Assembly: GCA_964345045.1 (NCBI GenBank)
Contig: CAYFPM010000001.1
Location: forward strand, 300,215 to 364,214
Reading direction: 5' to 3'
DNA length: 64,000 bases
Source of the DNA: an uncultured Gammaproteobacteria bacterium
GTDB taxonomy: Bacteria; Patescibacteriota; Patescibacteriia; Magasanikbacterales; UBA922
Position numbers and translations under genes: made by a program. The notes under the pieces were generated by a model. It saw nothing but the letters and a program-made list of their open reading frames with translations. It searched no databases and was not told the origin of the DNA. Positions 6,219-48,384 of the stretch are shown piece after piece (positions within the stretch are counted from its first letter, which is position 1; each line of letters starts with the position of its first letter).

Positions 6219-7568
6219 ATGAAGTTATCTTTTTTTGGAGCAGCTCACGAAGTTACCGGTTCGTGTTTTTTATTAGAAACAAACAAAAAGAAAATTTTGA
6301 TAGATTGTGGCATGTTTCAGGGGTCTAATTTTAACGAAGGCAAAAATAACGATAATTTTCCCTTTGATCCAAAATCTATTGATGCTGTATTGGTAACCCA
6401 TGCTCATTTGGATCATACAGGACGCATCCCCAAACTGATTAGAGAAGGTTTTAAAGGACCAATTTATATGACAAAAGCTACTTGCGAACTGGCTTATTTG
6501 ATTTGGAAAGATTCTCAAAAAATAATGACTTATAACAACAAAAAATTTAAAACACCGATTCTTTATTCTATAGAAGAAGTAGAATCTACTAGAGAAGCTT
6601 GCAATGGAGTTGATTATAGACAAGAGTTAGATTTGGGAGACGGAGTAAAAGCCGTTTGGAAGGATGCCGGTCATATTTTTGGAGCTGCTTTTATAGAAGT
6701 AACTGTCGAGGGTAAAACAATTTGTTTTTCTGGGGATGTGGGCAACAGCAATGTACCGATTCTAAAAGAAACAGATCAATTGGGAGAAATAGATGTTTTG
6801 CTTTGTGAATCTACTTATGGAAATAGACGTCACGAAACTAGAAAAGAAAGTATTGAATTAATTTTGAAATTGATAAAAGAAGGGGTAGAGCGTGGTGGCA
6901 CAGTTATGATTCCATCTTTTTCTTTGGAACGTACACAAGAATTGCTTTATGATTTGAACCAACTTAGCGAAGCCGGAGAACTACCAAAAGTACCTATCTT
7001 TTTGGACAGTCCTATGGCTATAGATGCTTTGCCGGTTTATCGCAAATATCCAGAATACTACGATCGTCAAGCTGCTTGTCTGCACGAAGCTGGAGATGAT
7101 TTTTTTCAATTTGATCAATTGAAAATTACCAGAAGTGTAGAAGAGTCCAAAGCTATAAACAACATAAAAAAATCCAAGATTATAATTGCCGGCTCGGGGA
7201 TGATGAATGGTGGACGAATTGTTCACCATGCTTATAGATATTTGTCGGATCCCAATTCTACACTTATAATTGTAGGTTTTCAGGCTTATGGTACTTTGGG
7301 GCGCAGATTGTACGAAGGTGCCGAGACAGTAAAAATTTTTAATGAAAAAATTCCAGTGCGAGCTACTATCAAAGCGATTGGGGGACTATCTGCTCATGCC
7401 GACCAAAAGAAAATGATAAGTTGGGTGAGAAATGCCGAGAAAATTCCGGAAAAAATTTATTTGGTGCATGGCGAACCAACTTCGGCAGCTTCACTAGCGC
7501 ACAAGTTTCGAGATGAGTTTGGAGTAAAAACAATTGTGCCGGAGTTTGGAGATGCTACCGAAATTTAA
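6219..7568 (+). CDS. beta-CASP family MBL-fold ribonuclease (RNase J/CPSF-like)
   Basis: HAHLDHTG metallo-beta-lactamase motif followed by beta-CASP and RNA-specificity domains. Confidence 0.8.
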   Translation: MKLSFFGAAHEVTGSCFLLETNKKKILIDCGMFQGSNFNEGKNNDNFPFDPKSIDAVLVTHAHLDHTGRIPKLIREGFKGPIYMTKATCELAYLIWKDSQKIMTYNNKKFKTPILYSIEEVESTREACNGVDYRQELDLGDGVKAVWKDAGHIFGAAFIEVTVEGKTICFSGDVGNSNVPILKETDQLGEIDVLLCESTYGNRRHETRKESIELILKLIKEGVERGGTVMIPSFSLERTQELLYDLNQLSEAGELPKVPIFLDSPMAIDALPVYRKYPEYYDRQAACLHEAGDDFFQFDQLKITRSVEESKAINNIKKSKIIIAGSGMMNGGRIVHHAYRYLSDPNSTLIIVGFQAYGTLGRRLYEGAETVKIFNEKIPVRATIKAIGGLSAHADQKKMISWVRNAEKIPEKIYLVHGEPTSAASLAHKFRDEFGVKTIVPEFGDATEI

Positions 7569-7583
7569 AGATAAAAAAACAGC

Positions 7584-7606
7584 CTGTAGGCTTTTATTAG
7601 ATTATT
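7584..7606 (+). terminator. stem-loop (cagcctgtaggct) with flanking A/T runs, after the beta-CASP RNase gene
   Basis: aaaaaaacagcctgtaggcttttatt. Confidence 0.4.
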
Positions 7607-8500
7607 GATGATGTGGACGAGGAGAGGACGCCGGCAACCTAGTGGTAATACCGGCGTCCTCTCTCGCACAACCTCTAGCAGGCAATGCCCCCATAGCCTG
7701 CGAGGATGATGATCCTCCTAGTTTTTCGCGGTGTGGGAACCGAGTGTCATTGCGGCCAATCAACAACACTCGGCTCCCAATCACCCAATCCGCTGTCTTC
7801 TTTTCACACCAGAAGGAGTCTTGGCGTTACTTTTTGAAGACCTTTTCTCCTTTTCTTCCTGCTAGAGAAAGGAGTTCCGGGATTGCTCGCCGAGCACGCA
7901 TGTTTTTTCCCGGGCGGAACGGTTTTAAACCGACAGCCTCGGCACGGCAGGAGTAGAACTCTCTGCCGTGCCGGGCTGCCTGTCGAGGTCGATTAGATTC
8001 CTCTCTGTTTTGCTCGAAGGTGAGGAAGCTAACATCTAGAATTTTCTCCTAGATACAGGTATGAGTCGCGGTAACCTGCCGACCGTGTGCAGTGTGTCCG
8101 TATACTGTCCAAGATCCTCCCACCCTTTGTATACAAACGACGTCGTGATCTTCCAGAGGGGAGAGGAAGATCCTGACTTGTCGCAGTTTTGCGGGTGGTG
8201 AATCAAGGTTAGTTGCGAAAACCAGCCGAGGTCGCCGGGGGGGACGACGCCAGCTGTCACACTGCTTGATTTTTAAGATTGAAAGATCGAGAAACCTATG
8301 GCTCCGGCAGACGTGTGACTGCCTGGTGAAGTTCATTGTGTTCGCCACAACGATCTGCCGGAGCCCGAGGCCCGCTCTTTTTGGGGCTACCAGGGAGGAG
8401 GTAGCCATGGCGTAGTGTAACCGGGTCGGGTTGCACCACTAGAGGTTACGCTTTGATCTTATCCCTGGGGAAGGTCTAAGACAGCCAAGTTTTTGGGGAC
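7607..8500. other. ~0.9 kb high-GC non-coding block (island A) with multiple strong hairpins; unassigned structured RNA or degraded foreign DNA
   Basis: GC ~55-60% against a ~35% background. The only ORFs are Arg/Cys-rich spurious frames. Hairpins include gagaggacgccgg..ccggcgtcctctc, ggcacggcag..ctgccgtgcc and ggctacc..ggtagcc. Confidence 0.4.
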
Positions 8501-8705
8501 TTGGAAAGCGTCATTAATATGGATATTATTCATATCTTGAAAATTTGTCAAGGTTAAGTTAAAATCTTGGTTCTTGGTAAGATGTGGTAAACTTAATAAA
8601 TACTGATTTCGTAGATTTATAAAAATTACGCAAATATTTAATTTGAAATAGGTATAAGTTTAATTATTTATAAATGTCTAAGTTTAAAATACATTCAAAA
8701 TATCC

Positions 8706-8750
8706 AGCTTCGCTCCTTCTTCGTCGGAGCTTCGCCGGGACAAGCAAACC
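8706..8750 (+). promoter_or_regulatory. GC-rich hairpin / direct repeat (AGCTTCGC x2) immediately upstream of the uvrB ATG
   Basis: agcttcgctccttcttcgtcggagcttcgcc; no Shine-Dalgarno is visible. Confidence 0.3.
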
Positions 8751-8753
8751 AGC

Positions 8754-10850
8754 ATGAGTAAATTTAAAATAAAATCTAAATATAAACCGGCAGGAGATCA
8801 ACCCGAGGCAATTAAGGGGTTAGTTTCTGGTATAAAAAATAAAGAAGAGAAGCAAACCCTGCTTGGGGTGACAGGGTCTGGTAAGACCTTCACAGTGGCC
8901 AATGTCATAGAAAAAGTGCAAAAGCCTACTCTAGTAATTGCTCACAACAAAACTCTGGCAGCCCAGCTGTGCAACGAATTCCGTGAATTTTTCCCAGACA
9001 ATGCAGTAGAATATTTTGTAAGTTACTACGACTACTACCAACCAGAAGCTTACATGCCTGGTAGTGACACCTATATAGAGAAAGAAGCTCAGATAAATGA
9101 AGAAATAGACAGATTGCGTCATGCTTGTACGCAAGCCCTTTTGTCTCGCAAAGATGTAATTGTGGTAGCTTCGGTTTCTTGCATCTACGGACTTGGTTCC
9201 CCCAAAGAATACGAAAAAATAGTTTTGCATTTGCGAAAAGGGGATAAGCTAGATCGTCGGGGCATGATGGAGCAGCTTATTGAAATGCAGTTTGAGCGTA
9301 CTAATGGAGATTTGAAACGCGGAAGTTTCCGTATGCGTGGACAGACTTTTGAAATCATGCCGGTTAACGAAGAAAAGATTTATCGGTTTGAAGTTTCAAA
9401 CTATATAGATAGTATTGAAATGATTGATCCTGTAACTAGAAAAATTTTGAAAGAACAAGAAGATGTTTGGTTCTTTCCAGCCAAACACTATGTAGCTAGT
9501 CCAGAAGCGAGAGAGCGAGCCTATACCAGTATCAAAACAGAATTAGAAGAGCGACTAGGATTTTTTAAGAAAAAAGGTAAAGTACTGGAATACGAAAGGT
9601 TAAAAAGAAGAGTTAATTATGATTTGGAAATGATTCAAAATCTTGGTTATTGTAATGGTATAGAAAATTATTCACGTCACTTTGACGGTAGGGTAGAGGG
9701 GGAACCGGCCTTTACATTGCTCGATTATTTCCGCGAAGCCGATAAAGATTTTCTTACAGTGATAGATGAATCGCATGTAACTGTACCACAGGTAAGAGCT
9801 ATGTATGCAGGCGACAGAGCTAGAAAGGATACCTTGGTAGAGCATGGCTTTCGTCTTCCATCTGCCAGAGACAATAGGCCACTCAAGTTTGAAGAGTTTG
9901 AAGAAAGAGTAAAGCAGACTATATATGTATCGGCTACTCCTGGTGAGTATGAAAATAAAGAATCTAGCCAAGTAGTAGAGCAGATTGTACGTCCGACTGG
10001 TTTGGTAGATCCAGAGATAATTGTGCGGCCGGTGACCCCCTCAGCCTCGGCTGCGGCCTCGGCAGCTCCCCCTAAGAGGGGGAGCGATCGTTCGGCTTCG
10101 TCCACGTCTTTATCTCAAATCGAGGATGTGATTCTTCGGATTGAAGATAGAATTGGAAAAGGGGAGCGGGCGTTGGTTACTACCCTGACCAAGAAAATGG
10201 CTGAGGACTTGGACGAATATTTGCGAGAAAAGAAAATTAAAGTTAAATACTTGCATAGTGATATTAAAACTTTGGAAAGAGTAGAAATAATTACGGCTCT
10301 TCGCAAGGGTGATATAGATGTGATTGTTGGAGTAAACTTGCTTCGTGAAGGACTTGATATGCCAGAAGTTTCGCTTGTTGCTATTCTCGATGCTGATAAA
10401 GAAGGATTTTTGCGTAGTGAAACTAGCTTGATCCAGACCATTGGTAGAGCCGCTAGAAATGTAAATGGCCAAGTGGTACTATATGCCGACCAGATGACAG
10501 GCTCGATTGAGCGAGCTATAGAAGAAACCACTCGCCGTCGCGAGATACAGCTTGCTTACAACAAAAAGCATGGTATTACCCCAAAGACTATTGAAAAAGA
10601 AATTAAAAATTTGCTCGAAGAATTTGGAATTGACGTTGAAAAAGAAAAGAATAAAAAAACCAGAAAGCAAAAAAATGCCAAGAGAACTACTTTGGAATTG
10701 GATTTACTCGGGGATGCTAGATCGATTAAAGAGATTATTAAGGACAAAGAACAAAAGATGAAAGAAGCTGCCCAGGGCCTAGAATTTGAATTGGCAGCAA
10801 TTCTGCGTGATGAGATAAGGGAATTAAAAGCCAGAGAAAAAGTGAAATAA
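8754..10850 (+). CDS. uvrB: excinuclease ABC subunit B (UvrB), carrying an in-frame GC-rich insertion
   Basis: Helicase motifs (GVTGSGKTFT), UvrB interaction domain and C-terminal UVR motif; extra VTPSASAAASAAPPKRGSDRSASSTSLS segment. Confidence 0.95.
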   Translation: MSKFKIKSKYKPAGDQPEAIKGLVSGIKNKEEKQTLLGVTGSGKTFTVANVIEKVQKPTLVIAHNKTLAAQLCNEFREFFPDNAVEYFVSYYDYYQPEAYMPGSDTYIEKEAQINEEIDRLRHACTQALLSRKDVIVVASVSCIYGLGSPKEYEKIVLHLRKGDKLDRRGMMEQLIEMQFERTNGDLKRGSFRMRGQTFEIMPVNEEKIYRFEVSNYIDSIEMIDPVTRKILKEQEDVWFFPAKHYVASPEARERAYTSIKTELEERLGFFKKKGKVLEYERLKRRVNYDLEMIQNLGYCNGIENYSRHFDGRVEGEPAFTLLDYFREADKDFLTVIDESHVTVPQVRAMYAGDRARKDTLVEHGFRLPSARDNRPLKFEEFEERVKQTIYVSATPGEYENKESSQVVEQIVRPTGLVDPEIIVRPVTPSASAAASAAPPKRGSDRSASSTSLSQIEDVILRIEDRIGKGERALVTTLTKKMAEDLDEYLREKKIKVKYLHSDIKTLERVEIITALRKGDIDVIVGVNLLREGLDMPEVSLVAILDADKEGFLRSETSLIQTIGRAARNVNGQVVLYADQMTGSIERAIEETTRRREIQLAYNKKHGITPKTIEKEIKNLLEEFGIDVEKEKNKKTRKQKNAKRTTLELDLLGDARSIKEIIKDKEQKMKEAAQGLEFELAAILRDEIRELKAREKVK
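10035..10110. repeat. GC-rich palindromic element (CTCCCCCTAAGAGGGGGAG core) inserted in-frame in uvrB
   Basis: ~75 nt at ~70% GC inside an AT-rich gene. It replaces the short canonical linker after PEIxVRP. It shares modules with elements at 18868, 12118, 35065 and 59876. Confidence 0.7.
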
Positions 10851-11678: not shown

Positions 11679-14327
11679 ATGAAAGATAAAATAACAATCA
11701 AAGGCGCGCGTGAGCATAATCTAAAAAATATTGATCTAGAATTACCTAGGAATAAAATGATTGTGTTCACTGGTCTATCTGGTTCGGGCAAATCGAGCCT
11801 GGCTTTTGATACCATATTTGCCGAGGGGCAACGTAGATATGTAGAAAGCTTGTCGGCCTATGCCAGGCAATTCCTAGGTGGTATGCAGAAGCCAGATGTA
11901 GATGAGATAGAAGGGCTTTCACCAGCTATTTCGATTGATCAGAAGGCTCATAGTGCCAATCCTCGCTCGACCGTAGCGACTATCACCGAGATCTACGATT
12001 ATTTGCGGGTGCTCTATGCTAGAGTCGGGGAGCCGTACTGTCCCGTAGATGGTACCAAGATAGAGAAGATGACTGTAGATGAGATGAATGAGAAGATTTT
12101 GAAGGGATTAAAGAATACTGCCAAACCCTCACCCGCTCGGCCGAAGGCCGAGTCGACCTCTCCCAGAGGGAGAGGTAAAGCTTCAACTTCGACTAAAGTA
12201 TCTAATGAAGTTTTGATTCTCTCGCCAATAGTTCGTGGTAGGAAAGGGGAGTACTACCAGATGCTTTATGATATGTATAATTCTGGTTTTCTAGAAGTGA
12301 GAGTTGATGGCAAAATCAAGAGTTTGCGCAAGCGGATTACTCTTACTAAGAACAAAAAGCACACTATAGAAGTAGTGGTAGACAAATTTCCACTAACAGA
12401 ATTTGAATTTTCTGGCGACAAAGCTGCCAAGCAGCGTCTTGCCGAGGCAGTAGAACAGGCTGTAGATCTATCCAATGGTCTTTGTGTGGTTATATACCCT
12501 GATGGTACCGAGACAGTCTATTCTACAGAATATTCTTGCCCCAAAGATGGTTTTAGCTTTCCAGAAATTGAGCCCAGGCTCTTTAGTTTCAATAGCCCTT
12601 ATGGGCAGTGTGGTTATTGTATGGGGATTGGAACCAAGGAACTCTTTAGTGAAGAATTGTGTCCAAAATGTGAAGGAAAGAGACTCAATGAAAATGCTTT
12701 GTCTGTAAAAGTGAACAAGAAAAATATTTATGAGCTTACCTCAATGGGGATTGGAGATGCCAAGCAATTTGTAGCAGATTTGGAAGAAACCATGAGTGAA
12801 AAAGATCTAGAAATTTCTGGAGCTGTTTTTCGCGAAGTCACGGGTCGTCTTCAATTCATGCTAGACGTAGGGCTAGACTACCTTACTCTAGATCGCAAAG
12901 CTGGCACTCTCTCTGGTGGAGAAGCTCAGCGTATCCGTCTGGCTTCGCAAGTTGGGACCAAACTGGTGGGAGCACTTTATGTGCTCGACGAACCAACCAT
13001 TGGCCTGCACCAGCGCGATAATGATCAGCTTGTTTCAACTCTACGCAATTTGTGTGATGTGGGTAATACTATTATTGTAGTTGAGCATGATGAAGATACT
13101 ATTATTACCAGTGATTGGTTGGTCGACATTGGCCCTGGGGCGGGTAAGCATGGTGGAGACGTGGTTTATTCTGGTCCACTGGAAAAGATTGTGAATTTGA
13201 AATCAAAGGCCAAGAATAATACTGGTTGTAAAGAATATGGTAGTGCCGATAAATCACTGACAGGTAAATACCTGCGCGGTGAGAAAAAGATAGCTGTGCC
13301 AGAGAAGAGGAGAAAGGTAGATAGCTCGACTCCCAAAATTAAGATAAAAGGGGCCAAAGAACATAACTTGAAAAATATTAATGTGGAAATTCCATTGCGT
13401 CGTTTGGTTTGCCTTACTGGTGTTTCTGGATCTGGTAAGTCCACGCTCATGCACGACATTCTATATCGCACAGTAGCCAATAGACTCAACCATGTAAAGA
13501 AAAAAACCGGTGAGCATAAGTCTATTACCAATACCGAATATATCGATAAGATAATTAGAATTGACCAAAGCCCGATTGGTCGCACCCCGCGTAGTAATCC
13601 AGCTACTTATACCAAAGCCTATGACCATATAAGAGAGATCTTTGCCTCTACACCAGAAGCCAGAATCCGTGGTTACAAATCTGGCCGCTTTAGTTTCAAT
13701 ACGCCCAATGGTCGGTGTGAAAATTGTGAAGGTCGGGGATTCCTAGAAATAGAGATGCACTTTTTGCCAAGTGTAGAGATTGTGTGTGATGTGTGCAAGG
13801 GACAAAGATTTGATCACGAAACTTTGCAAGTGCATTACAAAGGCAAAAATATTGCCGAAGTTCTCAATATGACCATCGAAGATGCTGAAGAATTCTTTCG
13901 AGATATTCCGGCAATTTATGATAAATTAAAAGTGCTTAACCAAGTTGGTCTTGACTATTTAACACTTGGTCAGTCGGCCAAGACTCTGTCTGGTGGAGAA
14001 GCGCAGCGTATCAAACTAAGTAAAGAACTCTCCAAAAGAAATACCACCAAGACCCTGTACCTGCTAGACGAACCAACAACTGGGCTGCATTATGATGATG
14101 TACGAAAACTGGTCGATGTGTTACAACGTTTAACTTCTCAGGGTAATACAGTGATGGTGATTGAACACAACTTAGATGTAATCAAATGTGCTGATTGGCT
14201 TATAGATCTAGGCCCAGAAGGTGGTAAAAATGGAGGGCAAGTAGTGGCTGTAGGGACACCAGAGGAGATTGCTCGCAAATCTACCACCAGTTTTACGGGT
14301 AAATATTTGAAGCGAGTTTTGAAATAA
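11679..14327 (+). CDS. uvrA: excinuclease ABC subunit A (UvrA), carrying an in-frame GC-rich insertion
   Basis: Two ABC ATPase modules (GLSGSGKSSL, GVSGSGKSTL), zinc-finger cysteines, LSGGE signatures; extra AKPSPARPKAESTSPRGRGKASTSTKVSNEV. Confidence 0.95.
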   Translation: MKDKITIKGAREHNLKNIDLELPRNKMIVFTGLSGSGKSSLAFDTIFAEGQRRYVESLSAYARQFLGGMQKPDVDEIEGLSPAISIDQKAHSANPRSTVATITEIYDYLRVLYARVGEPYCPVDGTKIEKMTVDEMNEKILKGLKNTAKPSPARPKAESTSPRGRGKASTSTKVSNEVLILSPIVRGRKGEYYQMLYDMYNSGFLEVRVDGKIKSLRKRITLTKNKKHTIEVVVDKFPLTEFEFSGDKAAKQRLAEAVEQAVDLSNGLCVVIYPDGTETVYSTEYSCPKDGFSFPEIEPRLFSFNSPYGQCGYCMGIGTKELFSEELCPKCEGKRLNENALSVKVNKKNIYELTSMGIGDAKQFVADLEETMSEKDLEISGAVFREVTGRLQFMLDVGLDYLTLDRKAGTLSGGEAQRIRLASQVGTKLVGALYVLDEPTIGLHQRDNDQLVSTLRNLCDVGNTIIVVEHDEDTIITSDWLVDIGPGAGKHGGDVVYSGPLEKIVNLKSKAKNNTGCKEYGSADKSLTGKYLRGEKKIAVPEKRRKVDSSTPKIKIKGAKEHNLKNINVEIPLRRLVCLTGVSGSGKSTLMHDILYRTVANRLNHVKKKTGEHKSITNTEYIDKIIRIDQSPIGRTPRSNPATYTKAYDHIREIFASTPEARIRGYKSGRFSFNTPNGRCENCEGRGFLEIEMHFLPSVEIVCDVCKGQRFDHETLQVHYKGKNIAEVLNMTIEDAEEFFRDIPAIYDKLKVLNQVGLDYLTLGQSAKTLSGGEAQRIKLSKELSKRNTTKTLYLLDEPTTGLHYDDVRKLVDVLQRLTSQGNTVMVIEHNLDVIKCADWLIDLGPEGGKNGGQVVAVGTPEEIARKSTTSFTGKYLKRVLK
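12118..12195. repeat. GC-rich palindromic element (CCTCTCCCAGAGGGAGAGG core) inserted in-frame in uvrA
   Basis: aaaccctcacccg...gtcgacctctcccagagggagaggt; near-identical to the right half of the uvrC element. Confidence 0.7.
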
Positions 14328-14432: not shown

Positions 14433-14681
14433 ATGTTTTCCGTGAGCAAACTGATGATTCCCTCTCAAATCACCACCGACATCGCCGTCTTCATGATCTG
14501 GGGGTTCTTGATCGCCTCCATGTTGATCTCGATCATGACCTGGTGGAAGTTCTTCCCCTGGCCAACCTCGGTCTGGGCGCGCCGCATCTCGATCGGTGTC
14601 GGGCCGGTCATGTGGGGTGCCTTCTTCATCTTGGCAGCTGTGGTGTACCAGGGTCCGGTCGATCAGTTCGGTGGGCCGTAG
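14433..14681 (+). CDS. small 2-TM membrane protein (82 aa) in a high-GC cassette (island B); possible PLD-N/cardiolipin-synthase-N-like fold
   Basis: GC3-rich codons (atc/gcc/ttc/ctg) and two hydrophobic helices, GPVMWGAFFILAAVVYQG. The other long frames here are Arg/His-rich and spurious. Confidence 0.4.
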   Translation: MFSVSKLMIPSQITTDIAVFMIWGFLIASMLISIMTWWKFFPWPTSVWARRISIGVGPVMWGAFFILAAVVYQGPVDQFGGP

Positions 14682-17501: not shown

Positions 17502-18083
17502 ATGCCAGAAAAATATAAAAATAAATATCGGATACCATCAGCCAGATATAAAGGTTGGAATTATGGATGGGATGGATATTATTTTGTGACAATTTGTACA
17601 AAAAATAGGGAACATTTTTTTGGAAATATTGTGGAAGGGAAAATGATTTTGTCGGAAATTGGGGAAATGGTCGAAAAATATTGGTATGAAATTCCAAAAC
17701 ATTTTTCATTTGTACGGTTGGATGCGTTTGTGGTAATGCCGAACCATTTTCATGCCATTGTGATAATTGATAAAAATAATGATAAACCGGTAGAGACGCA
17801 TTGCAATGCGTCTCTACAACAACGGGATGTATATAAAAAATCAAATGATCATCGTGAATACCAAAATAAATTCGGCCCGCAAAAACACAATTTGGCGTCC
17901 ATAATTCGTGGTTTCAAAGGGACGGTAACCAAACAGGTCAACGAAAGATTTGGTGATGAATATTTCGCCTGGCAACCCCGATTCCACGAACACATTATCC
18001 GCAACGAAATAGCGTTGGAAAGAATTCGTAAATATATAAAATTAAATCCTTGGAAATGGCAAGATGATTGTTTTTTCAAATAA
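17502..18083 (+). CDS. REP-associated tyrosine transposase (RAYT) / IS200-like Y1 HUH transposase
   Basis: YYFVTICTKNRE, HuH motif NHFHAIV, WQPRFHEHIIRNE...IRKYIKLNPWKW tyrosine region. Confidence 0.75.
   Translation: MPEKYKNKYRIPSARYKGWNYGWDGYYFVTICTKNREHFFGNIVEGKMILSEIGEMVEKYWYEIPKHFSFVRLDAFVVMPNHFHAIVIIDKNNDKPVETHCNASLQQRDVYKKSNDHREYQNKFGPQKHNLASIIRGFKGTVTKQVNERFGDEYFAWQPRFHEHIIRNEIALERIRKYIKLNPWKWQDDCFFK
17790..17817. repeat. 28-nt perfect palindrome inside the RAYT ORF
   Basis: GTAGAGACGCATTGCAATGCGTCTCTAC, encoding VETHCNASLQ between the HuH and Tyr regions. Confidence 0.6.
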
Positions 18084-18085
18084 TT

Positions 18086-19477
18086 ATGTCTACAAAAATT
18101 CAAAAAAAATTAAAAAATCTTCCAGATACACCGGGTATCTATCTTTTTTATAATTTCAAAAAAGAATTAGTCTATGTAGGCAAAGCCACTTCTCTAAAAA
18201 GTAGAGTTAGAAGTTACTTCAACAGTGGTAACAAAACTAGCCGACCAATAGAAGCACTGATTCACGAAGTGGCAGATATAAAATGGAAAGAAGCAGACTC
18301 TGTACTAGAAGCCATAATAATGGAAGCCAACCATATAAAAAAATATCAACCCAAATATAATGTAGACGGTAAAGATGATAAAAGTTGGAATTATATTGTA
18401 ATAACCAAAGACGAGTATCCACGTGTAGAGACTGTGCGACAACATGAGCTTGAAAATGTACGAAATACTAAAGATACGAAATTACGAAAATTTAACGAAG
18501 TGTTTGGGCCATATCCTGGGTTGAATACCAAAGAGACTTTGAAATTGCTAAGAAAGATTTTTACTTATTCAACCTGTCAAAGCAAGAAAGCAAAAAAACA
18601 AGAAAGCAAAAAAGTTAAGCCATGTTTTTATTATCAACTAGGGCAGTGTTTGGGGGTGTGTACTGGCGAGATAAGTTCTACAGAATACAAAGCAAAAGTA
18701 ATTAGGCCTTTGAAAACTTTTCTTGGTGGTAGAAAAAAGCAACTTATAAAAAGTTTGGAAGTAAAAATGAGAAAGGAGTCTAAGCTAGAGAATTTCGAAG
18801 AAGCAGCCAGACTTCGCAACCAGATATCGGCTTTGCAAAGGATTCATGATGTGGCGCTTTTGAATAAATCGTTTGTAGATACCCCCTCAGGCCTGCGGCC
18901 AGCTCCCCCTAAACCCTCACCCGGACGCCCTGCGGTCGTTTCGACCTCTCCCAGAGGGAGAGGTGAAAACTCTGATTCTAGAAAAGAAGTTATTAGAATA
19001 GAAGGCTACGATATTTCTAATTTTGGTGCTACTGGCAAAGTGGGGTCGATGGTGGTCTTTGAATTTGGCGAAGCCAAGAAAAAAGATTACAGAAAATTTA
19101 AAATTAAATCTGTAGTAGGGCAGAGTGATGTGGATTGTCTCGAGGAAGTTCTTGAACGCAGACTGCGTCACGCAAAAAGCAAAGAGCAAGGAACAAAGAA
19201 CAAGAAAGATTTTTGGCCTTTGCCGCAAGTATTTTTGATTGATGGTGGTAAGCCGCAGGTTAACCGGGCAAAGAAAGTTTTGAAAGATAATAAAGTGGAT
19301 GTGCCGGTGGTGGGGATTGCCAAGGGGCCAGATAGAAAAAAAAATGAATTTATATTGGGGAGTAAGAATAAAGACTTTGTTAAATGGGTTTATTCTAATC
19401 AAAAATTGTTAATCGCGGTGCGCGACGAGGCTCATCGGTTTGCAATTGCTTATCAGCGAAAATTACGAAAATTATAA
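18086..19477 (+). CDS. uvrC: excinuclease ABC subunit C (UvrC), short form without C-terminal (HhH)2, carrying an in-frame GC-rich insertion
   Basis: GIY-YIG (PGIYLFYN...VYVGKA), UvrBC-binding region, RNaseH-like endonuclease (DEAHRFAI); extra DTPSGLRPAPPKPSPGRPAVVSTSPRGRGENSDSRK. Confidence 0.9.
   Translation: MSTKIQKKLKNLPDTPGIYLFYNFKKELVYVGKATSLKSRVRSYFNSGNKTSRPIEALIHEVADIKWKEADSVLEAIIMEANHIKKYQPKYNVDGKDDKSWNYIVITKDEYPRVETVRQHELENVRNTKDTKLRKFNEVFGPYPGLNTKETLKLLRKIFTYSTCQSKKAKKQESKKVKPCFYYQLGQCLGVCTGEISSTEYKAKVIRPLKTFLGGRKKQLIKSLEVKMRKESKLENFEEAARLRNQISALQRIHDVALLNKSFVDTPSGLRPAPPKPSPGRPAVVSTSPRGRGENSDSRKEVIRIEGYDISNFGATGKVGSMVVFEFGEAKKKDYRKFKIKSVVGQSDVDCLEEVLERRLRHAKSKEQGTKNKKDFWPLPQVFLIDGGKPQVNRAKKVLKDNKVDVPVVGIAKGPDRKKNEFILGSKNKDFVKWVYSNQKLLIAVRDEAHRFAIAYQRKLRKL
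18868..18957. repeat. GC-rich composite palindromic element inserted in-frame in uvrC
   Basis: ccccctcaggcctgcggccagctccccctaaaccctcacccgg...cgacctctcccagagggagaggtg. Left half matches the uvrB element and right half the uvrA element. Confidence 0.7.
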
Positions 19478-19608: not shown

Positions 19609-19680
19609 TGGGGCGGGCCGGAATCGAACCGGAGACTCTCTGACGGACGTCAGGCGCTTTCCCAATTAAGCTACCGCTCC
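19609..19680 (-). tRNA. tRNA-like gene with atypical anticodon arm (possibly Gly-UCC-like); CCA not encoded
   Basis: Acceptor GGAGCGG/CCGCCCC (one A-C mismatch), D arm GCTT-AATTGGGA-AAGC, T arm with TTCGATT loop. The anticodon region CTGACGTCCGTCAG folds as a tight palindrome and gives a 6-nt loop under the standard template. Confidence 0.45.
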
Positions 19681-19998: not shown

Positions 19999-20208
19999 AT
20001 GACTAACGTTACGTACGAGACCTGCCCGGGGTGTGGTGGTACCAGGTCAAGGGGTCACTACGGTGGCACCAGGTGTCCCCGCTGTTCCAGGAATGCTCGC
20101 GAGTCCAGGCGTCGCACCGCCGCCGCGATCGGTGACGCAATCATCGAGGGGCCAATCGCGGTTGTCAAGGGCGTGAGGAGCGTCTTCAGGTTCTTAAACC
20201 AGCTCTGA
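19999..20208 (+). CDS. small Arg-rich zinc-ribbon protein (CPGCGG...CPRC), high GC (island D)
   Basis: SD ggaaggag 8 nt upstream of ATG; CxxC-x14-CxxC; GC ~62%; its own terminators follow. Confidence 0.45.
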   Translation: MTNVTYETCPGCGGTRSRGHYGGTRCPRCSRNARESRRRTAAAIGDAIIEGPIAVVKGVRSVFRFLNQL

Positions 20209-20247: not shown

Positions 20248-20312
20248 GGAGCACGATTAGTCGTGCTCCTGCCTCAAACTTCAATTTGTTACAGCCTGTA
20301 GGCTGTTTTTTT
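20248..20312 (+). terminator. two consecutive hairpins (ggagcacga..tcgtgctcc; acagcctgtaggctgt + T7) ending island D
   Basis: The second hairpin core cagcctgtaggct is identical to the one at 7590. Confidence 0.5.
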
Positions 20313-33110: not shown

Positions 33111-33395
33111 TCAGGCGGCGGAGTCTTCGGCTTGGAAGCGGCTGATCTCGATGTGTGGAACGGCATAGCCCTTTGGGTTGCCAAATATGATGTCGTTTTG
33201 AACAAGGTACTTGATCACTCCCATGATGTTGTCCATGTCGACTCCAAGGCCAACCAGCTTTGCCGAAAGCTTGCTCAGGTTCCAGCTCTTTCCACGGAGA
33301 GTATCTCCGTTTGAGAGTGCCCCGTAGAGTTGCTCCTTAGAGAACTTTGGTTTGATAGGTGCGATGTGAGTATACACACTTCTTCCTTTGTTCAT
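33111..33395 (-). CDS. hypothetical 94-aa protein, moderately GC-rich (~50%)
   Basis: Strong SD ggaaggag 6 nt upstream of ATG (MNKGRSVYTHIAPIKPK...); composition distinct from neighbours. Confidence 0.4.
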   Translation of the reverse strand: MNKGRSVYTHIAPIKPKFSKEQLYGALSNGDTLRGKSWNLSKLSAKLVGLGVDMDNIMGVIKYLVQNDIIFGNPKGYAVPHIEISRFQAEDSAA

Positions 33396-38018: not shown

Positions 38019-38729
38019 TTAGTTATCGAGGGCTTTTCTGGCGTCTAGCTTTTGGAGCAGGCTGCGAATCCCAAAGGGAATGGCAATCGCCCCGGCGACT
38101 GTAGCCACGTAGAGCGGCCAAGTGCCTACGCTTTGGTCGGCGTATAGAATGCCTCCCACCAGAATCAGCTCTGCTACCATCTTGATCTTGCCAGATAGCT
38201 TGGCTTTGAGATCCAGCTGTTTGCCGGATTCGAGAGCCACAGCTTCTTTGTTGGATTGGTAGTCCTCCACTCGGATAACCAAGAGTGCCATTTCGAGTAG
38301 AAAGAGGGCTGTACAGACCATAACCTCTGCACTCACAAGGAGTGGAGGAGGTTTTATCTCTATTTGCTTGGTGCAGATCAGTGACAGGAGTAACAAGAAA
38401 TACACCTTGTCGCCGACAGCATCGACATACGCGCCGTAATCTCCGGCGGTGCCTTTGGCTCTTGCCACCAGTCCATCGACGTAGTCGAGAAAACTGTTGG
38501 CGGTGTAGGCCAGCAAGATCAAGCTCATGTAGAGCAGGTTTTCGCTGTAGCGAATACTGGCAAGGCCAATGGGAATGGCCATGACCACCCGAAAGTAGGT
38601 GATCCGGTTGGCCGTGATCCAGCTGGGCAGCCTCTTGGCAGCGGGGATGAAGGTGCGGTCAAGCCAGGAATATCCCCGGCCGAAACCACTTTCGATCGAG
38701 GTGGCGAGGGTCGTCGTGTCCTGGCTCAT
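38019..38729 (-). CDS. CDP-alcohol phosphatidyltransferase paralog, high GC (~58%) (island F)
   Basis: LDYVDGLVARAKGTAGDYGAYVDAVGDKV motif; convergent with the native paralog; AT-rich SD aaggaagg upstream. Confidence 0.75.
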   Translation of the reverse strand: MSQDTTTLATSIESGFGRGYSWLDRTFIPAAKRLPSWITANRITYFRVVMAIPIGLASIRYSENLLYMSLILLAYTANSFLDYVDGLVARAKGTAGDYGAYVDAVGDKVYFLLLLSLICTKQIEIKPPPLLVSAEVMVCTALFLLEMALLVIRVEDYQSNKEAVALESGKQLDLKAKLSGKIKMVAELILVGGILYADQSVGTWPLYVATVAGAIAIPFGIRSLLQKLDARKALDN

Positions 38730-45028: not shown

Positions 45029-45868
45029 ATGAGTGACAAAAAAGGAAAAGTAGAAGTCACTGAGCAGGTTCATCTCGGACGATCTTGGAGGGTAGGTGAA
45101 GCGTACGATCCTGGTTCCGATATGCCCACGGGTATGGAGGAAGTGCCGAAAGACTTCCTTGACGATGATGGTGCTACGGAGGATGAGCCTGACGATACAG
45201 AGGTTCAACTGGTTCGTCCGCTCACAGACAGCCAAGTGGATCAGCCTGCCCCCGCCGGGCTGGGCTACTACGATGAGCCTCCTACGGAGGAGGGCCCCCC
45301 TCTTCCTTCGGAATCGCCTGCTGTGGTCTCTATCCCCACCGATACGCTCGTGCAGCAACCGGCATTGAGTTGGTGGCAGATTCCTGGCAACTGGGTCAAG
45401 GTGGTGACTATCTTGCTCGTTTTTGTCGTGGCTCTTTTGTTGGGCATGCTCAACAAAAAGTCGGATGAAGAGATCAAGGCTGAACCGCTTGATCAAGCTG
45501 CCCCGGCAAGTAAGCTGGTAGACATTCCCGATGATCCCCCTGTGGCTACGTCGGCGGTCGCTACCGCCCCAGATGCTGGAGTGATGCCCGAGGATCCTCC
45601 TCGGGTAGCTCCAGTGCTCAGGAGGAGTGGTCCTGATGCGGGAGTGAAGAAGGCGGTCAAGAGGAAGGCAAAGAAACGTCGGGAGAAACGCAAGAAGAAA
45701 CCGGCGAAAGATCCAGAAGAAACTACTACCACCCACCAACTTTTGCCTGGAGAGTCTGTCGAAGACTACTGTGACCGGTGGTCTGCCAAAACTTTTTCCA
45801 GCCCTGGCTTGGCTAGGATTGGCGCTTACAAAAGCTGTGTCAAGGAATTGAAAGGAGGAGGCAAATGA
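45029..45868 (+). CDS. single-pass membrane protein with acidic Pro-rich N-region and Lys-rich C-region; high GC (island E gene 1)
   Basis: SD gaaggagg upstream. The first ~14 codons are AT-rich and then GC rises to ~62%. One TM helix (VKVVTILLVFVVALLLGML). Confidence 0.5.
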   Translation: MSDKKGKVEVTEQVHLGRSWRVGEAYDPGSDMPTGMEEVPKDFLDDDGATEDEPDDTEVQLVRPLTDSQVDQPAPAGLGYYDEPPTEEGPPLPSESPAVVSIPTDTLVQQPALSWWQIPGNWVKVVTILLVFVVALLLGMLNKKSDEEIKAEPLDQAAPASKLVDIPDDPPVATSAVATAPDAGVMPEDPPRVAPVLRRSGPDAGVKKAVKRKAKKRREKRKKKPAKDPEETTTTHQLLPGESVEDYCDRWSAKTFSSPGLARIGAYKSCVKELKGGGK

Positions 45869-46791
45869 GAGCCTTCGTGATTGCTATCTTTTTGGTTTTT
45901 TCTTCCAGCTTGATGGCGCAAGCCTCTGACTGGAAGGACGTTCTGCATCTCCCTCCGAAAGATCCGGGCAGCCCACGATTGGTGGGCAAGGCAGCCGACG
46001 TCATGGGGGCTTTGGCTCACTGTCAGCAAGAAGTCCGTTGTCAGATCTTGGTGAAGGAGGATAAGCCCGGTGGGACTGAGTATGGGAATATGTGGCACGA
46101 GGAGTGTTACGAACTTCTCAACTCGGCCGCGATCATGAAACCAGGGCCGGAAACTTGGTTCGTCTCGGAAAAAGACGAGATGGTGGTAGCGATAGATGAT
46201 CCTGGCTCTGGTGGCCACGAAGGTGCTGTGATCAAGTGCCGAGTAGATCCCAAGCCGGCTACCATGCCCTCTATGCCATCGTCACCCCCACCAACCGTAG
46301 CCAAAGCGGTCGAACTTCAAGGTGAGAGCGATTTCAAGTTCGCCCTCACAGTCGACTTCGGAGTCGGTTTCTCACGACTCGATCCGTCGCCGGACCATTA
46401 CTTCGACGGTACGGTCGGCATCGGAGGACTGCTCTTGATCAATGATTTCTGGGAGGTCGCTCTCCGAATCGACTTTGGTGGGACATTCCGCGAGGGACAG
46501 ACGTGGTACTTCGTACCACAGCTCTCTGGCGGGGTGCGACCGGCCGACTGGATATACTTCGGCGTCTTTGGGCGCCTTGGTGGTGCAACCCAGGGATCCT
46601 ACTGGGGTAACCTAGGATTTGGAGTACGGGTGTACCCGCTCAAGATCTTCGGATCGGAGTTCCCGTTGGCTGTCTTCTTCGAGACCGATGCCCTTGGGCG
46701 TCAGGTCACACCGGAGACCGAGACCCACAACCCTGGCGATCAGGGGCGCATGGGCCTGCGCGGTGGTCTACGCTACGAAGCTTTTTTCTAA
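45865..46791 (+). CDS. secreted protein with beta-barrel-like C-terminus ending ...YEAFF (island E gene 2)
   Basis: Signal peptide MRAFVIAIFLVFSSSLMAQA; Gly/aromatic-rich alternating pattern; terminal Phe like OMP beta-barrels; ATGA overlap with gene 1. Confidence 0.5.
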   Translation: MRAFVIAIFLVFSSSLMAQASDWKDVLHLPPKDPGSPRLVGKAADVMGALAHCQQEVRCQILVKEDKPGGTEYGNMWHEECYELLNSAAIMKPGPETWFVSEKDEMVVAIDDPGSGGHEGAVIKCRVDPKPATMPSMPSSPPPTVAKAVELQGESDFKFALTVDFGVGFSRLDPSPDHYFDGTVGIGGLLLINDFWEVALRIDFGGTFREGQTWYFVPQLSGGVRPADWIYFGVFGRLGGATQGSYWGNLGFGVRVYPLKIFGSEFPLAVFFETDALGRQVTPETETHNPGDQGRMGLRGGLRYEAFF

Positions 46792-46911
46792 CGTTCATTT
46801 TTTGGCGGATGAGATCTTTCGAGATCCATCCGCCCCGTTCACATGTTCAGCATTGCAAATGCTGTGCAGGTGTTGGGTAACGCTCTTTCAAATTTTGGAA
46901 AGGAAAACAAG

Positions 46912-48384
46912 ATGAAGAAGATCGCTTTGGCCGTCTTGGCCGCACTGTTCACCTCCACCGGCTGCGAGGTGGTAAACCTCGGCAGCCCGGGTATGGCGCC
47001 GACTGAGAAGCACTTCGTGCAGTATGACGGCGGAGATCTCGACGCAGGTTTCATCGTCGGCGACGACGTGGGGCCCATCGATATGGGCTTCATCGACGCT
47101 GGCTACGATGTCGGCTTCCGCGACGCCAACCTCGACGCAGAGGCAATGGATGCGATCGCTGACGCCGACGTGACCGATGTCTACGACGACGTTGGGTTCG
47201 CTGATGCAGAAGCAGATTCTGGTCTGGACGACAGCGGGGTTCACCCCGATGCCGACTTGCCGGACGCGATCGTAGACTCGGGACCCGAGGATACTGGCGT
47301 CCACCCGGACGCCTTTGTCCCCGACATGGGTTTCCCAGACGCCGAGCCGATCGACGCCGTGATCCATCCCGATGCGGAGATTACGGACAATGGAATCCAC
47401 TTTGACGCCACAGTATACCCCGATGCTACGCCAGACACAGGGTTCCCAGACAGCGGCTTTGCCGACTCTGGGACTCTGGATTCTGGACTCGACGCTGGGG
47501 TTATCGACGGTGGTGGCCCGCCTGTTTGTCCGGCCGGGTTCATCTATGTAGCTCCTGGTTCGTTCACTATGGGGACTCCGGCTGCAGCACCGTGGTTCTC
47601 CTCGCCAGAAGGACCGCAACACCAGGTCAGTTTGACCTATGGCTACATCATGGGGGAGACCGAGGTAACCAGAGCCCAGCTGCAAGCAGTGTTGGGCATT
47701 GCTCGAGATCCTTCTTGGAACACCGGCTGTGGGGCAAATTGCCCGGCTACCAACGTGAGCTGGGACCTGGCGGCCGAGTATGCCAATGCTCTTTCTATTA
47801 GCCAAGGTCTGTCTCCATGCTACGCTGGCTCTGCCGGGAGCTACACTTTCGTAGGACTCTCGTGTACTGGCTGGCGTATGCCGACCGAGGCCGAGTGGGA
47901 ATTTGCCGCTCGAGCTGGTAGTACCACTGCCTTTTGGAATGGTGACCCAGTGAACTTCTCCTCGGGGAGTGCTATGACAACCTTTGGTGAGCCTGGGCAT
48001 GCAATTGCCTGGTGGTTGGCCAATAGTCAGGTAGCCTACACTCCAGCTGTGGACACGTTCACGGCTCCGGACAATGGATTTACCATGGCTGGTACGCACC
48101 CGGTAGCCACCAAGACCCCCAATCCGCTCGGTCTCTATGACATGAACGGCAACGTCTGGGAGCTTACCTCGGATTGTTGGACGCAGACCTACCCGGGATC
48201 AAATCCCAGAACCAATCCGGTGACCGGGGCTGGTACCCGGTGTGCCAGTATTGTGAGGCGTGGAGGAAGTTTTGCCGACCCGCAAAGCTCCTTGCACAAC
48301 TCCACTAGGTTTGGAGATTTCCCGCATGTTCAGAATCCTCTCAATGGTTTCCGGATAGCGCGTAATCACCCGGCCTGCCAGTAG
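46912..48384 (+). CDS. lipoprotein with Asp-rich HPDA repeats and C-terminal FGE-sulfatase (SUMF1/DUF323) domain (island E gene 3)
   Basis: Lipobox LFTSTGC; GSFTMGTP...TNVSWDLAAEYANALS...GWRMPTEAEWEFAARAG...YDMNGNVWELTSDCW...RGGSF. Confidence 0.7.
   Translation: MKKIALAVLAALFTSTGCEVVNLGSPGMAPTEKHFVQYDGGDLDAGFIVGDDVGPIDMGFIDAGYDVGFRDANLDAEAMDAIADADVTDVYDDVGFADAEADSGLDDSGVHPDADLPDAIVDSGPEDTGVHPDAFVPDMGFPDAEPIDAVIHPDAEITDNGIHFDATVYPDATPDTGFPDSGFADSGTLDSGLDAGVIDGGGPPVCPAGFIYVAPGSFTMGTPAAAPWFSSPEGPQHQVSLTYGYIMGETEVTRAQLQAVLGIARDPSWNTGCGANCPATNVSWDLAAEYANALSISQGLSPCYAGSAGSYTFVGLSCTGWRMPTEAEWEFAARAGSTTAFWNGDPVNFSSGSAMTTFGEPGHAIAWWLANSQVAYTPAVDTFTAPDNGFTMAGTHPVATKTPNPLGLYDMNGNVWELTSDCWTQTYPGSNPRTNPVTGAGTRCASIVRRGGSFADPQSSLHNSTRFGDFPHVQNPLNGFRIARNHPACQ

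Follow-up and report, generated by a model that had tools for sequence, protein, structure and literature searches.

The subject of this study is a GC-rich block at about 7600-8500 of a 64,000-nucleotide (nt) stretch of bacterial DNA (the window), which we consider as a candidate gene for a large structured non-coding RNA (ncRNA). The block sits between a gene for a beta-CASP/RMMBL metallo-beta-lactamase RNase (6219-7568, plus strand) and uvrB (8754-10850, plus strand), both assigned with Pfam. Homologues of the beta-CASP protein are named Candidatus Magasanikbacteria or Patescibacteria, and the organism is a member of Candidatus Magasanikbacteria in the Candidate Phyla Radiation (CPR). The GC content of the block (7600-8499) ranges from 0.505 to 0.575 per 200-nt segment, with a mean of 0.54 against 0.38 for the whole window, and is 0.23-0.30 in the adjoining 8500-8700. 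The block sequence is 100% identical across three independent assemblies of the same organism and is therefore no assembly artefact.

Coding capacity, fold and putative transcription signals of the block

All open reading frames (ORFs) of the block are short, rich in Arg, Pro, Ser and Cys, and not protein-like. The two longest have no match in Pfam, and the longest open frame (8438-8052, minus strand) has no homologue among 5.8 billion proteins. Stop codons number 6 in minus frame 1, 10-14 in the other two minus frames and 9-16 in the plus frames; an alternative genetic code or stop recoding is ruled out, as none of the single stop-codon reassignments, each of which was tried, opens a frame. 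The original prediction, made from the letters of the sequence, had described a high-GC, non-coding block of about 0.9 kb in the gap between the RNase gene and uvrB, with no ORFs other than non-protein-like frames, and the composition, ORF, Pfam and protein-search results agree with that description, except that the mean GC content is slightly lower than the 55-60% it had stated.

We compared the predicted minimum free energy (MFE) of the block with that of dinucleotide shuffles on both strands. The minus strand reaches -399 kcal/mol [z = -16.4; z = -12.2 in a second shuffle run] and the plus strand -373 kcal/mol [z = -6.4; z = -7.0 in the second run]. The shuffled controls average -290 kcal/mol for the minus strand and -315 kcal/mol for the plus strand, so that minus-strand shuffles fold worse, and the greater stability of the minus strand despite its less stable shuffles points to G-U pairs confined to the minus transcript, as these turn into A-C mismatches on the opposite strand. 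Excess structure, measured in 150-nt sliding windows, extends from about 7550 to about 8550 only and is close to zero in both flanking genes, with limits that coincide with promoter-like and terminator-like sites of the minus strand (Table 1). As modelled, the structural signal belongs to the minus strand, an orientation that had not been foreseen in the original prediction. The MFE fold of 7570-8520 on this strand comprises 315 base pairs, 22 of them G-U, with 66% of the bases paired and 78% of the pairs at a probability above 0.9.

Nine GC-rich coding controls (GC 0.51-0.61) from this window and from related genomes gave z-scores of +1.3 to -4.8 on either strand, so that the fold of the block is not accounted for by GC content alone. 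The same controls bear on the possibility that the block represents one or more decayed pseudogenes of acquired GC-rich protein genes, in which case its structure would be incidental. Acquired genes of this kind abound in these genomes, including at this locus, and minus frame 1 has the fewest stops of any frame, but the z-scores of the block (-12 to -16) stand apart from those of all nine intact coding controls, the structure is bounded by promoter and terminator signals, and perfect stems of 11-14 bp would not survive in decaying DNA. Together with the composition of the translations and the lack of any protein homologue of the longest frame or Pfam match of the two longest ORFs, these observations make a decayed pseudogene a distinctly unlikely account of the block.

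Within the block we listed 14 inverted repeats, among them the three hairpins already pointed out in the original prediction, which are real (7622-7634/7651-7663, 13 bp and perfect; 7940-7950/7963-7973, 11 bp and perfect; 8385-8391/8400-8406). In the predicted fold, a long-range helix encloses a multi-branched domain of about 770 nt, and the G-U pairs of the longest hairpin (7730-7785) are possible only in a minus-strand transcript. The listing contains no repeated hairpin family, and the other 63 kb of the window hold no second copy of any part of the block except a 14-nt terminator motif. A palindrome cluster of the REP/BIME or MITE type was considered and ruled out, because the hairpins are all different and none is repeated; a REP/RAYT arrangement, an idea that came from an IS200-like Y1 transposase ORF at 17502-18083, was ruled out on the same ground.

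The minus-strand promoter-like site lies back-to-back with a promoter-like site for uvrB on the plus strand (8537-8565) and puts the predicted transcript start near 8516. At the opposite end, the terminator-like hairpin is read in both directions, its plus-strand version (7573-7592) terminating the beta-CASP gene. It might instead be that the palindromes act as DNA, or that the plus strand is the functional one and exposes G-rich GGA loops, either as a sponge of the CsrB/RsmZ type or as a long leader of uvrB. The plus strand does fold beyond its shuffles, as given above, and the complements of the C-rich loops of the minus strand (AGGGAGGA, AGAGGGGAGA and GGGGA) contain GGA. However, folding favours the minus strand both in absolute energy and relative to shuffles, and the plus strand has no promoter ahead of the block and no terminator behind it (its promoter-like sites, at 8501-8565, immediately precede uvrB). 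In addition, Rfam returns no CsrB or RsmZ match, and no CsrA gene was seen, though none was searched for. We leave only a slim chance to a function of the DNA palindromes or the plus strand.

Known RNA families were sought with the 4227 covariance models of Rfam 15, at gathering score over the whole window and at E <= 10 with permissive filters over 7500-8760 (1.26 kb). At gathering score, the only match in the window is a tRNA (19609-19680), and nothing falls in the block; at E <= 10, the 1.26-kb region gives only sub-threshold hairpin noise from microRNA and long non-coding RNA families (12.7-23 bits, against thresholds of 58-100). Neither setting produced a match in the block to RNase P, transfer-messenger RNA (tmRNA), signal recognition particle (SRP) RNA, group I or group II introns, OLE, GOLLD, ROOL, HEARO or raiA, and ARAGORN found no tmRNA there. 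The original prediction had found only weak partial matches to RNase P, tmRNA and SRP domain IV on the two strands, and the scan against Rfam that it proposed as a check has now been run, with no family accounting for the block. A group II intron or retron is not indicated either, as there is no Intron_gpII match and no Pfam-matching ORF in the block, whose neighbours are the beta-CASP RNase and UvrB. The single tRNA match of the window (minus strand, 44 bits) was not called by ARAGORN, which reports no tRNA in the whole window, and its anticodon arm looks irregular by eye; the site perhaps represents a tRNA-like element or a pseudogene.

These searches also address the possibility that a known large RNA family (RNase P, tmRNA, group I or II intron, OLE, GOLLD, ROOL, HEARO or raiA) has in the block a representative so divergent that the covariance models miss it. 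The size and GC enrichment of the block are like those of such families, and CPR bacteria carry insertions in their stable RNAs, which we count in favour of this explanation. However, no such family appeared even at the permissive threshold, none was found by Rfam in the equivalent regions of six relatives, ARAGORN detected no tmRNA, and no reverse transcriptase, IsrB or other partner gene adjoins the block. We consider a missed member of a known family hardly probable.

Table 1. Features of the block and other GC-rich stretches of the window
Feature	Coordinates	Strand	Basis or remark
Predicted ncRNA, ~944 nt	8516-7573	-	promoter-like and terminator-like sites, fold, no coding capacity, no Rfam family
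Sigma-70-type promoter-like site: -35 TTGACA, 17-nt spacer, -10 TAATAT	8551-8546 (-35); 8528-8523 (-10)	-	scan, 10/12 matches
Terminator-like site: AGCC-UACA-GGCU (4 bp), one G, U7 (7579-7573)	7592-7573	-	read from sequence; helix present in fold
Six C-rich apical loops, 5' half	8155-8498	-	predicted fold
C-rich apical loop CCCCAAAA	8498-8491	-	predicted fold
C-rich apical loop UCCCC	8471-8467	-	predicted fold
C-rich apical loop CGACCC	8428-8423	-	predicted fold
C-rich apical loop UCCUCCCU, inside ACCUCCUCCCU	8399-8392	-	predicted fold; anti-Shine-Dalgarno-like
C-rich apical loop CCCCCC	8242-8237	-	predicted fold
C-rich apical loop UCUCCCCUCU	8164-8155	-	predicted fold
Seventh C-rich apical loop CUCCU	7814-7818	-	predicted fold
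Long-range helix, 5' arm AACCUCUA, 3' arm UAGAGGUU	8447-8440/7677-7670	-	predicted fold
12-bp helix	8365-8354/8311-8300	-	predicted, within the ~770-nt domain
177-nt sub-domain, closing helix	8265-8258/8096-8089	-	predicted, within the ~770-nt domain
Hairpin, 7+11+4 bp	7980-7932	-	contains ggcacggcag/ctgccgtgcc of the original prediction
Long hairpin, 19 bp including 3 G-U (7779-7761/7752-7734), with a 4-bp helix extension	7730-7785	-	predicted
3'-terminal hairpin, 4+14 bp, upstream of terminator	7666-7618	-	contains gagaggacgccgg/ccggcgtcctctc of the original prediction
GC-rich island	14433-14681	+	82-aa membrane-like protein
GC-rich island	19999-20208	+	69-aa CxxC...CxxC zinc-ribbon-like protein
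GC-rich island	33111-33395	-	94-aa protein
GC-rich coding stretch	16336-17157		amino-acid kinase
GC-rich coding stretch	38019-38729		CDP-alcohol phosphatidyltransferase-family gene
GC-rich coding stretch	45029-48384		three genes: two without significant Pfam match and an FGE-sulfatase-domain protein

Positional analogues and accessory DNA at the locus

Relatives were found by synteny, by searching the beta-CASP protein against genome and metagenome contigs and examining the contigs that matched; percentages given for these loci (L numbers) are identities of their beta-CASP protein to that of the window. The nearest non-identical protein is 77% identical, and therefore the collections hold no close genome. 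The order beta-CASP gene, gap and uvrB is common to six genomes: the window, L021 (77%), L022 (75%), L023 (72%), and L001 and L013 (both 66%). All five relatives have a GC-rich stretch of about 330-1440 nt, without protein-like ORFs, that adjoins the 3' end of the beta-CASP gene. A minus-strand promoter (TTGACA-17-TAnnAT) stands directly upstream of the GC-rich unit in L001 (12/12), L013 (11/12), L021 (10/12) and L023 (10/12), and in L022 a TTGACA-17-CAATAT site, missed by the scan, was recognised by eye only. The terminator of each unit is common to it and the beta-CASP gene, and clear bidirectional terminators are present in relatives. The record of L001 is labelled 'Gammaproteobacteria', but both its gene order and its proteins match Magasanikbacteria.

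Folding of these units on the minus strand gave z-scores of -13.0 (L023), -10.8 (L013a), -8.2 (L021), -4.9 (L001a) and -3.1 (L022), and in all eight units tested the minus-strand z-score was never weaker than that of the plus strand. L001 and L013 have a second, weakly structured unit proximal to uvrB, which in L013, read from its sequence, looks like a gene for a small Cys-rich protein, equipped with a ribosome-binding site. The largest positional analogue is that of L023 (5150-6570, minus strand), a stretch of about 1420 nt with 56% GC in a contig of 49% GC and no protein-like ORF, with a promoter at 6604-6576 and a terminator at 5171-5154 on the same strand.

We detected no similarity between the block and the units of the relatives, or among those units, with blastn (word size 7) or nhmmer, and the k-mers common to the block and its analogues are at chance level only. 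A covariance model built from one sequence, that of the 166-nt domain 8447-8282, gave a best foreign match of E = 0.19 in runs with filters on and off, and this fell on terminators. Strain variants, which might have shown compensatory changes, do not occur among the three identical assemblies.

More distant relatives (60-69% identity) have other contents 3' of the beta-CASP gene. Ordinary AT-rich protein genes occupy this position in L025-L027, and MraZ follows directly in L037. In L029 (4850-5920; also in L030-L036), an island of about 1 kb and 60% GC lies between the beta-CASP gene and mraZ and encodes a plausible orphan protein of 336 aa with a ribosome-binding site; it has no counterpart in L037, the 80%-identical relative of L029. 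Among the nearer relatives, L021 has ferredoxin and peptidase U32 genes at the locus. Four contigs of the well-sampled and near-identical L029 population, also Magasanikbacteria, end at or within this island, and gene callers disagree on its strand, which suggests a presence/absence polymorphism. The varied contents of the locus and the contig breaks at the edge of the L029 island mark the position 3' of the beta-CASP gene as a hot spot of GC-rich accessory DNA, some of which is protein-coding.

Similar DNA occurs elsewhere in the window. The three GC-rich islands of Table 1 (GC 0.51-0.62) each have their own promoter, ribosome-binding site and terminator, and their proteins belong to no significant Pfam family; these islands fold no better than shuffles. 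The three GC-rich coding stretches (GC 0.55-0.62 in surroundings of 38% GC) were likely acquired horizontally. The block shares with the accessory islands its GC excess, the compact packaging from promoter to terminator, the location at a hot spot and a terminator hairpin present at both 7580 and 20292; it differs in that the islands encode plausible proteins and have z-scores of +1.3 to -2.2 (two others, -2.4 to -4.8), whereas the block has no such ORF and folds at z-scores of -12 to -16. The hairpin motif in question, CAGCCTGTAGGCT(G/T), has two copies in the window (7580-7593 and 20292-20305; 0.13 expected), the second of which (CAGCCTGTAGGCTG) ends another GC-rich island. Each copy acts as a terminator at the margin of a GC-rich island, and the hairpin may be a common boundary or terminator module of such islands. 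In L001, two adjacent orphan genes of 60% GC (384-2173), which have ribosome-binding sites and encode 293 aa and about 195 aa, lie beside murJ, where the window has lepA, and represent another GC-rich accessory island.

These observations raise the possibility that the block is cargo or a remnant of a mobile or phage-derived GC-rich island, whose RNA, if made, would serve the element rather than the cell (for example in replication, packaging or as an anti-defence decoy), or an RNA gene captured from a GC-richer donor. The variability of the locus, with GC-rich non-coding units in six genomes and protein genes in L021, L029 and L025-L027, is consistent with such an origin, as are the contigs of the L029 population that stop at the island boundary, the further islands across the window, each equipped with a promoter, a strong ribosome-binding site and a terminator, and the identical terminator hairpin that bounds two islands. 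However, the block has no integrase, transposase, flanking direct repeat or att-like site; blastn gave no match among 50,697 phage and 72,556 plasmid records; no match to its hairpin pattern was found in IMG/VR; and the orphan proteins of the islands have no phage match. A foreign or mobile origin of the DNA is plausible, but it concerns where the block came from rather than what it is and is compatible with a functional ncRNA; as an account of the block in its own right, we regard mobile cargo or a captured RNA gene as unlikely. The original prediction had offered a degraded foreign insert as its second option, and of this the foreign setting finds some support, the site being a hot spot for GC-rich, apparently horizontally acquired islands, while degradation has become less likely, given that no protein remnant was found and that the fold exceeds by far that of the GC-rich coding islands.

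In the wider neighbourhood, uvrB, uvrA (11679-14327) and uvrC (18068-19477; GIY-YIG and UvrC RNase H domains) all lie within 11 kb. The IS200-like Y1 transposase ORF, whose domain match is partial, overlaps uvrC at its annotated TTG start, and the 469-aa ORF at 18068, considered as a TnpB, is UvrC. Just 5' of the start codon of uvrB, its leader (8680-8745, plus strand) includes a short GC-rich segment with the direct repeat AGCTTCGC...AGCTTCGC.

C-rich loops and the proposed interpretation

The predicted minus-strand fold exposes C-rich apical loops, most of them in its 5' half (Table 1). Hairpin loops with CCC, CUCC or CCUC make up 7 of 19 in this fold, as compared with 1.4 of 17.3 in shuffled and refolded controls, and the C fraction of the predicted hairpin loops is 0.42, against 0.28 +/- 0.03 in shuffles. 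One loop lies inside ACCUCCUCCCU, which we take to resemble the anti-Shine-Dalgarno end of 16S rRNA. The bias toward C in loops is also present in L021 and L013a. As for possible partners, GGAG, GAGG or AGGA occurs upstream of the start codon in only 7 of the 49 genes of the window, mostly genes of GC-rich islands, and the predicted duplexes between loops and ribosome-binding sites reach -16.2 kcal/mol. Strong GGAGG sites are nearly restricted to the GC-rich island genes (16336, 19999, 33395, 38019, 45029 and 45865), with 17502 and 34507 in addition. Most of the AT-rich core genes have no Shine-Dalgarno site, and many of them look leaderless, with a TATAAT-like box 6-10 nt before the ATG (for example 33446, 35106, 37249, 48677 and 59391).

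From these features we infer a mode of action in which the molecule would act in trans, as RNA, through its exposed anti-Shine-Dalgarno-like loops. The loops would base-pair with G-rich ribosome-binding sites of the GGAGG type or titrate a factor that binds such sequences, and the proposed targets would be the GC-rich, apparently acquired genes on which GGAGG-type sites are mainly found here. A role as regulator or decoy through the C-rich loops is speculative, and we have low confidence in trans action on G-rich ribosome-binding sites or on the factor that may bind them. One may extend the proposal to a fast-evolving, long, GC-rich and hairpin-dense Magasanikbacteria RNA, convergent to the RNase gene and with a terminator in common with it, that persists in position, orientation and foldedness while its sequence turns over completely between genera, and whose loops, in a genome of largely leaderless or Shine-Dalgarno-free core genes, form a decoy or silencer specific to acquired genes led by GGAGG; we think this very unlikely to hold in full. 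If the decoy or silencer role were true, it would amount to an RNA-based policing of the expression of foreign genes, in which degradation by the adjacent RNase might also take part.

Several observations weigh against the interpretation of the block as a discrete RNA gene with functional loops. Regarding the loops, C-rich motifs are not over-represented in the block sequence overall, so that what is unusual is their placement in predicted loops; the bias is absent from L001a, L001b, L022 and L023; and pairing between a CCUCC loop and GGAGG follows trivially from the motifs and carries no independent weight. Regarding the transcription signals, chance alone would give about 1.4 promoter-like matches of at least 9/12 in a region as large as this, and the terminator stem has 4 bp only, below the 5 bp at which the scan calls a site, and was missed by it; therefore, termination at 7592-7573 may be leaky. 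Raw MFE favours the minus strand in only five of the eight units, and the positional analogues, which have no likeness in sequence, k-mers or covariance model and span a four-fold range of length, may be unrelated insertions. Finally, the block has no homologue and hence no covariation, which would be the one strong kind of evidence for a functional structure, and its structure is a thermodynamic prediction from a single sequence.

Even so, the size and extremity of the fold, the clean bracketing by promoter-like and terminator-like sites, and the analogous minus-strand units in five other genomes lead us to favour an RNA, in which we have only moderate confidence because there are no homologues and no covariation. 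We consider that the block is probably a genuine, orphan, lineage-specific long structured ncRNA in a hot spot for accessory islands, and we give about an even chance to the full proposal, namely that 8516-7573 (minus strand) is an independent transcription unit for a very highly structured ncRNA of about 944 nt, an orphan convergent to the beta-CASP RNase gene, for which action via the C-rich loops would be the likeliest mode. The composition, the lack of coding potential, the excess and strand-biased predicted structure between the two signals, the positional analogues and the C-rich loops of the predicted fold are shown here, and transcription, the actual fold and any target of this RNA are inferred. 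The original prediction had suggested a large structured ncRNA of an undescribed class; the strand-asymmetric fold, the bracketing signals, the non-coding character and the absence of a match among all 4227 Rfam families speak for such an RNA, but the word "class" goes too far, since no homologue supports it.

Bacterial ncRNAs near 1 kb are rare, and the characterised classes (OLE, GOLLD, ROOL and raiA) are structurally or biologically unusual. Here, a CPR genome of about 1 Mb gives about 1 kb to a predicted untranslated and extremely folded transcript, with unrelated-looking positional counterparts in sister genomes. In the literature we found nothing on large or GC-rich ncRNAs in Patescibacteria or Magasanikbacteria. 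Should the RNA prove to be expressed and functional, this phylum would have its first large structured RNA, and the locus would exemplify conservation of position and foldedness in place of sequence. If the block were merely a captured or decaying fragment of foreign DNA, it would still mark a hot spot of GC-rich gene acquisition in reduced genomes.

Comparison with known RNA systems

The predicted RNA has much in common with the ornate ncRNAs OLE, GOLLD, ROOL, raiA and HEARO: a length of several hundred to about 1000 nt, no coding capacity, GC enrichment relative to an AT-rich genome, a putative promoter and terminator of its own, a dense multi-branched predicted structure with long-range closing helices, and detection through the logic of GC-rich intergenic regions. 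It differs from them in that these families are defined by conserved sequence and covariation in many species, whereas the RNA of the window has no covariance-model match and no homologue detected even where the flanking protein is 77% identical. Long regular hairpins dominate its fold instead of conserved junctions, and GNRA loops are not enriched.

The sponges CsrB and RsmZ are likewise long RNAs that expose a short motif many times over in hairpin loops, a likeness that suggests titration of a partner. However, the minus-strand motif of the block is C-rich rather than GGA, Rfam gives no match, and no CsrA partner has been identified.

Staphylococcal RNAIII (514 nt) and the Rsa-type RNAs have C-rich (UCCC) apical loops able to pair with Shine-Dalgarno sequences. 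The RNA of the window belongs to another phylum, is nearly twice as long as RNAIII and has no embedded peptide gene, and its targets and loops are only predicted; Rfam shows no RNAIII or RsaE match for the block, nor any other relation in sequence or covariance model. The C-rich loop motif of staphylococcal riboregulators is the subject of PMC2790875. The feature that marks such riboregulators, C-rich motifs in unpaired loops, is present here in the predicted fold only, and in that fold the two systems are alike in their general architecture, that of a multi-hairpin RNA with several C-rich apical loops on one long molecule.

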